This document shows, piece after piece, positions 5,948 to 7,864 of a stretch of DNA of 9,273 nucleotides; positions within the stretch are counted from its first letter, which is position 1; every line of letters starts with the position of its first letter. The stretch is taken from the IMG/VR virus record IMGVR_UViG_2690316318_000024. The stretch is one strand, 5' to 3'. Origin of the DNA: a virus. Taxonomy: Duplodnaviria; Heunggongvirae; Uroviricota; Caudoviricetes. A model generated the notes under the pieces. It was not told the DNA's origin and searched no databases. It saw only the letters and a list, made by a program, of their open reading frames with translations. The position numbers were made by a program, and so were the translations under genes.

Positions 5948-6310
5948 ATGGCTAGCGAACGCAGTACTGATGTGCAGGCATTTATCGGGGAGCTGGACGG
6001 CGGCGTATTTGAAACCAAAATCGGTGCAGTTCTCAGTGAAGTCGCTTCCGGTGTGATGAACACGAAAACCAAAGGTAAGGTCTCACTCAACCTGGAAATC
6101 GAACCATTTGATGAGAACCGTGTGAAAATCAAACACAAACTCTCATATGTTCGCCCGACTAACCGCGGGAAAATTTCCGAAGAAGACACCACCGAAACGC
6201 CGATGTATGTCAATCGCGGTGGTCGCCTGACTATTCTGCAGGAAGACCAGGGACAATTACTGACTCTTGCCGGTGAACCTGACGGAAAACTCCGCGCAGC
6301 AGGTTATTAA
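5948..6310 (+). CDS. Hypothetical phage protein, 120 aa (YfdP-like by position)
   Basis: ATG at 5948 preceded by GAGGAG (5935-5940). The ORF track start at 5747 adds a Cys/Arg-rich extension that is not protein-like. Confidence 0.7.
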   Translation: MASERSTDVQAFIGELDGGVFETKIGAVLSEVASGVMNTKTKGKVSLNLEIEPFDENRVKIKHKLSYVRPTNRGKISEEDTTETPMYVNRGGRLTILQEDQGQLLTLAGEPDGKLRAAGY

Positions 6311-6375
6311 TATCGTTCTTAATTAACTGATTATTTACCTCATCACTGAATATCTTTATATAGTGAGGACTTATT

Positions 6376-7200
6376 ATGTCTCAGAACTTAGACGCAACCG
6401 CAATTAATCAAATCCATGCCCTTATTTCTGCTCAGGGTGTTAATGAAATTATCAGTAAGATTGGTGCCGACGCAGTGGCATTACCTGAAAATTTCCGCAT
6501 TCATGATCTGGAAAAATTTAATTTAAATCGCTTCCGTTTCCGTGGTGCGCTTTCCACTGCCAGCATCGATGACTTTACCCGTTATTCTAAAGATCTTGCA
6601 GATGAAGGCACCCGCTGCTTTATCGATGCCGATAATATGCGAGCCGTCAGTGTGCTTAACCTAGGCACTATTGATGAACCTGGTCATGCAGATAACACCG
6701 CCACTCTCAAACTGAAAAAGACAGCACCGTTCTCTGCTCTGTTGTCTGTTAATGGCGAGCGTAACTCCCAGAAGTCACTGGCAGAATGGATTGAAGACTG
6801 GGCCGACTACCTTGTAGGCTTTGATGCTAATGGTGACGCTATTCAGGCAACAAAAGCGGCTGCGGCTGTCCGTAAAATCACGATTGAAGCAAACCAGACC
6901 GCTGATTTTGAAGATAATGACTTCAGCGGAAAACGCTCCCTGATGGAGTCTGTCGAAGCGAAGACCAAAGATATTATGCCAGTGGCATTTGAATTTAAAT
7001 GCGTTCCGTTTGAAGGTCTGAAAGAACGTCCGTTTAAATTACGCCTCAGCATTATCACTGGCGATCGTCCTGTACTGGTTCTGCGCATTATTCAGTTGGA
7101 AGCAGTCCAGGAAGAAATGGCTAACGAATTTCGTGATCTGCTTGTTGAGAAATTCAAAGACAGCAAAGTAGAAACCTTTATTGGTACTTTCACCGCCTGA
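6376..7200 (+). CDS. yfdQ: YfdQ-like protein (DUF2303-type), 274 aa
   Basis: ORF track 6376..7200. ATG preceded by GAGGA. Length and position immediately upstream of an HD-domain YfdR-like gene match the yfdQ-yfdR arrangement as I recall it from E. coli K-12 CPS-53; symbol assigned on that basis, not on sequence identity. Confidence 0.7.
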
Positions 7201-7212
7201 TTTCATTACTGC

Positions 7213-7236
7213 AAATGCCCCTGCGGGGGCATTTAT
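7213..7236 (+). terminator. Hairpin (9-bp stem AAATGCCCC/GGGGCATTT, loop TGCG) followed by AT; possible weak terminator downstream of the yfdQ-like gene
   Basis: Seen directly, 13 nt after the stop at 7200. The T-tract is largely within the stem, so termination efficiency is uncertain. Confidence 0.3.
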
Positions 7237-7327
7237 GGAAACGTAATTTACTCAATAATCGCCGGATGGTAAGGGATTCTTTTTACCAGAATTCAGCGCG
7301 GTGCAGGGCATATACGTGGAGAACAAA

Positions 7328-7864
7328 ATGTCATTTATTAAAACTTTTTCCGGGAAGCATTTTTATTATGACAAGATAAATAAAGATGACATCGTTATTA
7401 ACGATATCGCGGTTTCCCTTTCAAATATCTGTCGTTTTGCAGGACATCTTTCACACTTCTACAGCGTCGCCCAACATGCGGTGCTTTGCAGCCAGCTGGT
7501 ACCGCAGGAATTTGCTTTTGAAGCGTTAATGCATGATGCAACAGAAGCATATTGCCAGGACATCCCCGCACCACTGAAACACCTTCTTCCTGACTATAAA
7601 CGGATGGAAGAAAAAATAGACGCCGTAATCCGTGAGAAATACGGGTTACCCCCAGTTATGAGTACGCCCGTGAAATATGCCGATCTCATCATGCTGGCAA
7701 CCGAACGCCGCGATCTCGGACTTGATGATGGCTCTTTCTGGCCTGTACTGGAAGGTATCCCGGCAACAGAGATGTTCAAAGTGATTCCACTGGCACCGGG
7801 TCATGCCTACGGAATGTTTATGGAACGATTTAAAGAGCTGCATAAGATACATAAACAATCCTGA
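7328..7864 (+). CDS. yfdR: HD-domain phosphohydrolase (YfdR-like 5'-deoxynucleotidase family), 178 aa
   Basis: ATG at 7328 preceded by GGAG at 6-nt spacing; the ORF track GTG at 7301 gives 187 aa. HD-domain motifs H...HD...D (SVAQHAVL, ALMHDATEAYCQD). Confidence 0.75.
   Translation: MSFIKTFSGKHFYYDKINKDDIVINDIAVSLSNICRFAGHLSHFYSVAQHAVLCSQLVPQEFAFEALMHDATEAYCQDIPAPLKHLLPDYKRMEEKIDAVIREKYGLPPVMSTPVKYADLIMLATERRDLGLDDGSFWPVLEGIPATEMFKVIPLAPGHAYGMFMERFKELHKIHKQS

Follow-up and report, generated by a model that had tools for sequence, protein, structure and literature searches.

[quoted passage not shown]

The DNA analyzed here, a stretch of 9,273 nt from the Caudoviricetes virus record IMGVR_UViG_2690316318_000024 (the window, taken at its whole length), carries intact yfdP, yfdQ, and yfdR genes under purifying selection, whose predicted products are orthologues of proteins of the CPS-53 prophage of E. 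coli K-12. We read the cluster and its downstream genes as the distal part of the early-left operon of an e14/ST64B/LLS-type lambdoid E. coli prophage, in which yfdPQR is followed by xis and int, and give this explanation as a whole, including the mechanism proposed below, a probability of roughly 0.55. The three genes lie on the plus strand at 5948–6310 (yfdP, 120 aa), 6376–7200 (yfdQ, 274 aa), and 7328–7864 (yfdR, 178 aa); yfdP and yfdQ are separated by 65 nt, and each gene is preceded by a Shine-Dalgarno sequence. The yfdR reading frame is open from 7301; the ATG at 7328, which follows a GGAG by eight bases, corresponds in alignment to residue 1 of K-12 YfdR. A preliminary description of this DNA had reported YfdP/YfdQ/YfdR-like genes at 5948–7864, which agrees exactly with the ORF coordinates, and had proposed comparison with the K-12 proteins. 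That comparison, run by BLASTP against MG1655 CPS-53, gave 118/120 (98%), 272/274 (99%), and 168/176 (95%) identical residues for YfdP, YfdQ, and YfdR, respectively. The dN/dS ratios against K-12 were 0.20, 0.02, and 0.08 in the same order, which indicates purifying selection on all three genes. The cluster is already known: PGAP annotation carries the names yfdP, yfdQ, and yfdR, the genes are treated in the replication and lambdoid-phage literature (Noguchi & Katayama, 2016, PMC4776307; Zheng et al., 2025, PMC12315714), and 3100 of 5426 complete E. coli genomes contained a match to the cluster, which in 2071 of them extended over 80% or more of the 2.5-kb query. Given their near-identity to annotated K-12 genes, the finding is correct but ordinary.

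A cI-like repressor gene (3074–3760) is located upstream of the cluster. From cI to the start of xis at 7905, the window contains a BRCT-domain gene, two small ORFs without assigned function, an sRNA-like element, and yfdPQR, and nothing else; this ORF and domain layout bears out the earlier placement of the genes between the early-left promoter region and xis-int. A candidate early-left promoter, pL-like and carrying operator-like motifs, was identified at 4687–4741 on the plus strand. It includes the best sigma-70-like site of the region (TTGACA-17-TAAATT, 4697–4725, 10/12 matches) together with the motifs CATAAAGTTGT and ACAACTTWWAGGTGTT, which are also present in the cI/cro intergenic region (3006–3044); none would be expected by chance. 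The candidate promoter is probably under repressor control. Upstream of yfdP is an element resembling the STnc100/PasD family of prophage sRNAs (5590–5813, plus strand), a G+C-rich region with a folding z of −5.7. Its full-length match to Rfam RF02076 scored 43.2 bits (E 5e-8), just below the gathering score of 47, and the element was matched in 79 loci. It ends in a terminator-like hairpin (5765–5812), and, because this hairpin sits between the candidate promoter and yfdP, co-transcription from that promoter is only putative. The adjoining yfdP leader (5814–5947, plus strand) is conserved, near full length in 81 loci, and consists of a long hairpin with a stem of approximately 18 bp (ACAAAACAGAGAAGA...TCTTCTCTGTTTTGT) and the yfdP ribosome-binding site.

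Downstream of yfdR, and in the same operon, an excisionase gene, xis (7905–8165, plus strand; Pfam Exc, E 1.8e-12), is annotated as xisE in relatives. It is followed by a lambda-type intE integrase gene (8146–9273, plus strand), whose Arm-DNA-bind_1 and Phage_integrase domains flank an amber codon at 8404–8406. The codon is TAG in the window versus TGG (Trp87) in strain GF131, and the prophage may therefore no longer be able to excise. In the interval from the repressor gene to xis, Pfam and phrog searches returned no recombination gene, and Rec genes of the ArgO145 type were present in 0 of 80 close viral loci. Chi sites (GCTGGTGG) were abundant: five were found where 0.24 would be expected, each of them on the minus strand, and 0 of 200 shuffles reached five. 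Their density, one per 1.85 kb, is as high as that of phage LLS (one per 1.86 kb). As judged from the 9.3 kb of the prophage analyzed, the excess agrees with a class of phages described in the literature as "no Rec module, high Chi" (LLS functional type), which relies on host RecBCD. ST64B/LLS-type phages share these three gene types, their order, and their operon position, and their RNA-like leader upstream is kept at 84–87% nucleotide identity to the window. In ST64B, the yfdP leader is 84% identical, whereas the neighboring proteins are only 57–65% identical to those of the window.

Across more distant phages, it is the first two genes that stay together. A YfdP homologue (E 1e-17 to 1e-54) was found upstream of YfdQ on the same strand in 16 of the 16 diverse loci examined, with one gene intervening in L092, and these loci show that phages across the Gammaproteobacteria keep yfdP and yfdQ as a fixed cassette of two genes. 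A YfdR-like gene accompanied the pair in only one of the 16, and a link between the two was not found in the diverse loci examined outside enterobacteria. The HD gene was present in 332 phage records, including phages of Caulobacter, Bacillus, and Rhizobium, versus 184 for YfdQ. Because it is so rarely found with the pair and is widespread without it, yfdPQR is a composite rather than a single evolutionary unit; the one module of the preliminary description is thus rejected. The viral-contig scan yielded near-identical E. coli-type loci only and suits counts of architecture rather than estimates of diversity; among 80 sampled viral loci, the arrangement of the window, in which yfdR leads directly into xisE/intE, was seen in one.

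YfdR is the hydrolase with which the cluster had been said to end, and its HD catalytic residues are intact. Alignments with Atu1052 and YfbR indicate that the HD-superfamily metal ligands H50, H69-D70, and D119 are kept, along with E73 and D78; D70, E73, D78, and D119 align with YfbR D69, E72, D77, and D137, respectively. YfbR (PDB: 2paq) and Atu1052 (PDB: 2gz4) share with YfdR the HD-superfamily fold, the H...HD...D motif, and an E and a D located after the HD pair. Atu1052 is the closest solved relative (E 5e-13), nearer than YfbR, which is approximately 25% identical. The protein matched phrog_318, "deoxyribonucleoside 5' monophosphate phosphatase," at E 4e-107, but it fell below the curated cut-offs of the YfbR models, narrowly for Pfam PF12917 (25.6 versus 25.9 bits) and widely for the NCBIfam equivalog NF003009 (21.1 versus 122 bits). 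By these sequence comparisons, it is a YfdR orthologue and not a YfbR equivalog, and the phage distribution shows yfdR to be a separate, widely distributed gene for a predicted HD phosphohydrolase that retains every metal ligand. PMC4776307, citing Zimmerman et al. [quoted passage not shown] The window protein would accordingly be a weak 5'-deoxynucleotidase, by extension from published work on the 95%-identical K-12 protein. Unlike YfbR, K-12 YfdR additionally binds DnaA, through Phe46 of DnaA domain I, and competes with DiaA and DnaB (Noguchi & Katayama, 2016), and the window protein is predicted to do likewise.

The order and spacing of yfdP-yfdQ-yfdR are the same in CPS-53 (KpLE1), where yfdS and yfdT follow. 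The window differs in having no yfdS, yfdT, ypdJ, or torI, so that yfdR is followed directly by e14-type xisE/intE, and in retaining a cI/cro immunity region, of which CPS-53 shows none between yfdO and yfdP. The absence of yfdS and yfdT bears on the replication phenotype reported for K-12, in which multicopy yfdQ-yfdR together with yfdS or yfdT inhibits initiation at oriC (PMC4776307). In the same study, replication was unaffected by a plasmid carrying only yfdQR, so that yfdS or yfdT was required, deletion of yfdQRST had no effect, and the authors concede that the overexpression effect could be an artefact. What the preliminary description had stated of K-12 YfdR, a 5'-deoxynucleotidase activity and inhibition of initiation by the overexpressed cluster, is supported by that paper. 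The window has yfdQ and yfdR of the inhibitory set, and tblastn with K-12 YfdS and YfdT found no significant match in it; since one of these two is needed, the K-12 phenotype may not apply here. Lambda P offers a functional analogy only, as a phage early protein that binds host DnaA and inhibits oriC initiation. It is an unrelated protein, a phage helicase loader that targets DnaA domain III, whereas YfdR is an HD hydrolase that targets domain I Phe46 (PMC4776307).

In the mechanism that we favor, inactivation of the repressor would allow transcription to start at the operator-bearing promoter near 4700 and to run across the STnc100-like element into the cluster. YfdR would then dampen host oriC initiation, turn dNMPs into nucleosides, or both, to the advantage of phage DNA synthesis. 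YfdP and YfdQ would act jointly, probably as an oligomeric complex, in an accessory role in DNA replication or recombination transactions. They would not substitute for a Red-type system, and recombination in this phage would most likely be carried out by host RecBCD at the abundant Chi sites.

It could instead be supposed that YfdP, YfdQ, and YfdR form an unrecognized recombination system that takes the place of lambda Red where phages lack exo/bet/gam. The cluster does occupy the Red position, as the preliminary description had noted in calling it a replacement for the lambda recombination genes, and the interval from cI to xis is free of Rec genes. A yfdQ deletion in K-12 is weakly MMS-sensitive according to work cited in PMC4776307, and Rec and SSB genes adjoin yfdPQ in 4 of the 11 diverse phages with annotation. 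The gene orders in those phages, however, argue against replacement because the pair coexists with complete Rec modules (SSAP, exonuclease, and SSB, with or without Gam): Gam-RecT-Exo-SSB-YfdP-YfdQ in ArgO145, Erf-RecE-P-Q in BA3, Erf-YqaJ-DnaQ-P-Q-SSB in Vibrio phage 34E29.1, and P-Q followed within four genes by Erf, an exonuclease, and SSB in Tenjo. Only the positional half of the original claim, the early-left site of lambda exo/bet/gam, therefore stands. None of the three proteins resembled Rec-module proteins (annealing protein, exonuclease, SSB, or RecBCD inhibitor) in sequence or fold, and the fold searches gave no likeness to Rad52/Red-beta/RecT/Erf annealing proteins, exonucleases, or Gam. 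Chi enrichment also points to the use of host RecBCD, the HD gene is unlinked to the pair outside enterobacteria, and Zheng et al. (2025) likewise concluded that the cassette is no stand-in for Rec genes. We consider a recombination system highly improbable and reject it on the co-occurrence with full Rec modules.

Two further explanations were considered. The genes could serve counter-defense, which the preliminary description had raised together with host takeover as a role that is so far speculative; YfdR would destroy nucleotide immune signals or rebalance pools against depletion defenses, and YfdPQ would neutralize a host nuclease or sensor. Nucleotides are the substrates of HD hydrolases, and YfdQ has an acidic pI of 4.97. 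The genes also sit in the accessory stretch of the early operon, which varies and includes genes for an anti-repressor (Ant), a DNA methylase, and other accessory functions; in Vibrio phage 34E29.1, a gene resembling the Thoeris anti-defense gene Tad2 lies three genes downstream of yfdQ. This evidence is by association only, however, and the sole activity reported for YfdR is on dNMPs. Full-text literature searches on YfdQ, YfdR, and DUF2303 found no report of anti-defense activity, and no model matched in PADLOC, a library of defense rather than anti-defense systems; counter-defense is, on balance, doubtful. Alternatively, these could be domesticated prophage genes that benefit the lysogen by slowing replication initiation and thereby raising tolerance to oxidative or alkylating stress. 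K-12 strains deleted for CPS-53, yfdQ, or yfdS are more sensitive to H2O2, and the yfdQ deletion is more sensitive to MMS, as cited in PMC4776307, but the phenotypes are described there as weak. The genes are kept intact under strong purifying selection in cryptic prophages, adjoin an amber-codon integrase gene in the window, and were matched in more than half of the complete E. coli genomes. Their position downstream of an operator-bearing early promoter nevertheless predicts silence in the lysogen, and the cassette is found in functional temperate and marine phages that show no sign of domestication, which makes a benefit to the lysogen unlikely.

For the genes of the window themselves, the finding adds little: they are annotated by name, a majority of complete E. 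coli genomes have a match to the cluster, and the literature on replication and lambdoid phages has already dealt with them. A sharper question is the role of the large and tightly paired yfdP-yfdQ family; an answer would account for a component that early operons of temperate phages commonly carry. The same holds for the question of whether DnaA or nucleotide pools are really targeted during induction by YfdR and other HD nucleotidases of phages.

YfdP matched phrog_204 (E 1.4e-49). All of its listed homologues carry PF27127, "YfdP"; a Pfam search with the protein itself returned no family. Its AlphaFold2 model (pLDDT 77) consists of one long helix and a three-stranded sheet, and a broad YfdP profile matched none of the PDB chains searched. 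YfdQ matched Pfam DUF2303 (PF10065) over residues 7–272 with 309.7 bits against a cut-off of 26.6 (E 2e-92) and phrog_210 at E 2.6e-120. A profile search of 1.84 billion representatives placed at least 1787 clusters at 50% identity in its family. Domain fusions were sought, and all 150 YfdQ relatives among the matches listed were short (approximately 155–300 aa), with no long multi-domain protein among them. The polar residues H104, E140, D141, R166, C209, and R223 are conserved family-wide, which suggests a putative active or ligand-binding site. PADLOC and NCBIfam model searches returned nothing for either protein, and their predicted folds had no match in the solved-structure libraries searched. 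By sequence, YfdQ matched PDB: 9o7m, "YfdQ Protein" (E 1e-44), an entry absent from the results of both fold searches and 98.8% identical to a protein of Xanthomonas phage MET23-P3. The entry has 36 chains, so the solved protein is apparently a large oligomer; a full-text literature search on its code found no relevant paper, and no published mechanism turned up. From the unmatched folds, the conserved polar residues of YfdQ, the apparently oligomeric homologue, and the recurrent location of the pair beside Rec and SSB genes (inside them in one phage), we tentatively suggest that the conserved core is the yfdP-yfdQ pair rather than the HD enzyme and that it is possibly an uncharacterized two-protein machine, either a new class of replication/recombination accessory or an anti-defense complex. 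Just 3' of the yfdQ stop codon, a stem-loop, AAATGCCCC-TGCG-GGGGCATTT, can be read from the sequence at 7213–7234 on the plus strand, with no T-run.

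The window comes from a lambdoid prophage and represents its immunity and early-left region. A cI-like repressor with HTH_3 and Peptidase_S24 domains (3074–3760), the yfdP (5948–6310), yfdQ (6376–7200) and yfdR (7328–7864) ORFs, an excisionase (xis, 7905–8165) and a lambda-type integrase (8146–9273) are encoded on the plus strand; the minus strand carries genes resembling cro and cII, replication genes, and yfdO and yfdN homologues related to those of K-12. The preliminary description had placed the yfdPQR cluster exactly, as 5948 is the start of yfdP and 7864 the stop of yfdR. 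Each of the three genes is preceded by a Shine-Dalgarno sequence. Two start codons were considered for yfdR, and ATG 7328 was preferred to the upstream GTG 7301 because its product aligns with residue 1 of K-12 YfdR; this product is the 178-aa protein named previously.

The proposed homology to the K-12 proteins was confirmed by BLASTP, with 118/120 (YfdP), 272/274 (YfdQ) and 168/176 (YfdR) residues identical to those encoded by the cryptic prophage CPS-53 of strain MG1655. YfdQ is a DUF2303 protein over its full length (Pfam, E = 2e-92), YfdP belongs to phrog_204 and has homologues that carry PF27127 ("YfdP"), and YfdR is assigned to phrog_318, "deoxyribonucleoside 5' monophosphate phosphatase". 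The HD catalytic residues of YfdR are intact: ligands H50, H69-D70 and D119 are all kept, together with E73 and D78. Comparison with K-12 gave dN/dS values of 0.20 for yfdP, 0.02 for yfdQ and 0.08 for yfdR; therefore, the genes have been maintained without decay. The identification was thus right, and the cluster is an already known and annotated feature: PGAP names are in place (yfdP, yfdQ and yfdR or "5'-deoxynucleotidase"), and 3100 of 5426 complete E. coli genomes have a match to the 2.5-kb cluster stretch, covering 80% or more of it in 2071 of them.

The yfdP/yfdQ/yfdR module is composite. Pairing was assessed in 11 annotated phages and five metagenomic contigs, all encoding distant YfdQ relatives; the phage hosts were Escherichia, Salmonella, Pseudomonas/Stutzerimonas, Thalassomonas, Vibrio, Xanthomonas, Psychrobacter and Acinetobacter. 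A same-strand YfdP homologue precedes YfdQ in 16/16 loci (hmmsearch, E = 1e-17 to 1e-54), directly or, in one of them, with a single intervening gene, whereas a YfdR-like HD protein was present only in ST64B (1/16). Conversely, proteins resembling YfdR are present in 332 phage records, many of them belonging to phages of Caulobacter, Bacillus, Rhizobium and Stenotrophomonas, compared with 184 for YfdQ. Among 80 near-identical E. coli-type viral loci the three genes almost always occur together (YfdP-YfdQ in 80/80, YfdR in 76/80).

The cluster had also been described as standing in place of lambda's recombination genes. Domain and profile searches found no recombination (Rec) gene between cI and xis in the window, and that part of the claim stands. 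Replacement does not hold, because yfdPQ adjoins complete Rec modules elsewhere: the gene order is Gam-RecT-Exo-SSB-YfdP-YfdQ in ArgO145, Erf-RecE-YfdP-YfdQ in Thalassomonas phage BA3 and Erf-YqaJ-DnaQ-YfdP-YfdQ-SSB in Vibrio phage 34E29.1, and in Xanthomonas phage Tenjo YfdP-YfdQ is followed by Erf, an exonuclease and SSB within four genes. Zheng et al. (2025, PMC12315714) judged such a cluster unlikely to encode unrecognised recombination proteins. According to the same paper, lambdoid phages that have no Rec module are enriched for Chi and rely on host RecBCD; in their type member, LLS, Chi occurs once per 1.86 kb. The window contains five Chi sites (GCTGGTGG; 303, 2462, 2889, 3933 and 8025) in 9.27 kb, all on the minus strand, compared with 0.24 expected from shuffles. 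This density, one per 1.85 kb, equals that of LLS; with no Rec gene found, and within the limits of a 9.3-kb stretch, the window fits the class described as "no Rec module, high Chi".

The earlier statements about K-12 YfdR are borne out by Noguchi and Katayama (2016, PMC4776307). Purified YfdR binds DnaA, dependent on Phe46 of domain I, and multicopy yfdQ and yfdR with either yfdS or yfdT inhibit initiation at oriC; yfdP is not needed, yfdQR without yfdST is ineffective, and deletion of the genes from K-12 has no effect. The nucleotidase relationship comes through that paper's citation of Zimmerman et al. (2008), according to which YfdR is an enzyme of the YfbR kind whose affinities for nucleotides are reportedly far lower. 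In the window, yfdS and yfdT are absent and xis comes straight after yfdR, an arrangement seen in 1/80 sampled viral loci, most of which have yfdS with or without yfdT. Some of the genes underlying the one published phenotype are therefore missing from the locus, and the phenotype cannot simply be transferred to it. The suggested role in host takeover or counter-defence is a reasonable but speculative one.

A sigma-70-like promoter at 4697–4725 is flanked by motifs CATAAAGTTGT and ACAACTTWWAGGTGTT, which recur in the cI/cro intergenic region, with none expected by chance. The operator-like motifs span 3006–3044 and 4687–4741, and we read this promoter as a candidate repressor-controlled early-left promoter. 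Between this promoter and yfdP there is a non-coding stretch that is G+C-rich and folds strongly. Its first part, 5590–5813 (plus strand), aligns over the whole length of the model for STnc100, a family of prophage sRNAs (RF02076; E = 5e-8), but its 43.2 bits fall just short of the gathering score (47). The 3' portion of this element weakly resembles DicF and closes with a terminator-like hairpin, GGCGGTACCAGC...GCTGGTACCGTCC, and then TTTTT. The element is matched in 79 loci, and PGAP labels the stretch a "frameshifted hypothetical protein" in a related genome. STnc100 has recently been tied to PasD sRNAs (bioRxiv 10.64898/2026.05.13.724894). A third copy of CATAAAGTTGT lies inside the element on the minus strand (5739–5749). 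The second part, the yfdP leader (5814–5947, plus strand), contains a hairpin of about 18 bp and is near full-length in 81 loci; it is conserved even in ST64B, where its nucleotide identity is 84%, compared with 57–65% for the flanking proteins. It may be a cis-acting regulatory RNA for distal genes of the early-left region.

The position that rexAB holds in lambda, with the repressor gene on one side and the early-left promoter on the other, is taken here by an opposite-strand gene (3743–4663, minus) whose 306-aa product carries a BRCT domain at its C-terminus. This product matches PDC-S48, a candidate defence model in PADLOC, weakly and in part (E = 2.7e-7), so the gene is possibly one for defence or conversion that the lysogen expresses.

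The yfdN and yfdO homologues are 97–99% identical to those of K-12 CPS-53 (window 333–1192 against the CPS-53 sequence, L002), and yfdPQR is also shared. Between yfdO and yfdP, however, the window has a full cI/cro immunity region where CPS-53 has only 358 bp, and its integration genes are e14-type xisE/intE rather than torI/intS. The window therefore looks like an undeleted CPS-53 relative joined to e14-type xisE/intE. The integrase gene is interrupted by an in-frame amber codon (8404–8406), TAG where strain GF131 has TGG (Trp87). Arm-binding and catalytic domains are thereby separated, and the prophage may be unable to excise.

What the yfdP-yfdQ pair does is the point that merits further attention. 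YfdP is predicted to form a long single helix, a three-stranded sheet and a flexible tail, and YfdQ mixed alpha/beta domains with a conserved but low-confidence loop (172–197); fold searches returned no convincing PDB neighbour for either model. PDB 9o7m ("YfdQ Protein"; 36 chains, one sequence) is the solved structure of a YfdQ homologue from a phage of Xanthomonas/Xylella type, and its sequence shares 98.8% identity with a protein of Xanthomonas phage MET23-P3; the entry was missing from the results of both fold searches, and a full-text search found no associated publication. The YfdQ family comprises at least 1787 clusters at 50% identity, and the 150 matches listed are all short (about 155–300 aa), with no long fusion protein. 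Residues T61, Q132, P211 and G270 are invariant among members sharing 35–48% identity with the window protein, and H104, E140, D141, R166, C209 and R223 are nearly so, a pattern that hints at a defined site. The sole functional clue is associative: yfdPQ neighbourhoods recurrently hold annealing proteins, exonucleases, SSB and methylases. Vibrio phage 34E29.1 carries, three genes after yfdQ, a Tad2-like gene of the Thoeris anti-defence type (L086, 5712–6221), and a bAvd and reverse transcriptase pair near yfdPQ in a metagenomic contig (L094, 8054–9940) looks like a diversity-generating retroelement.
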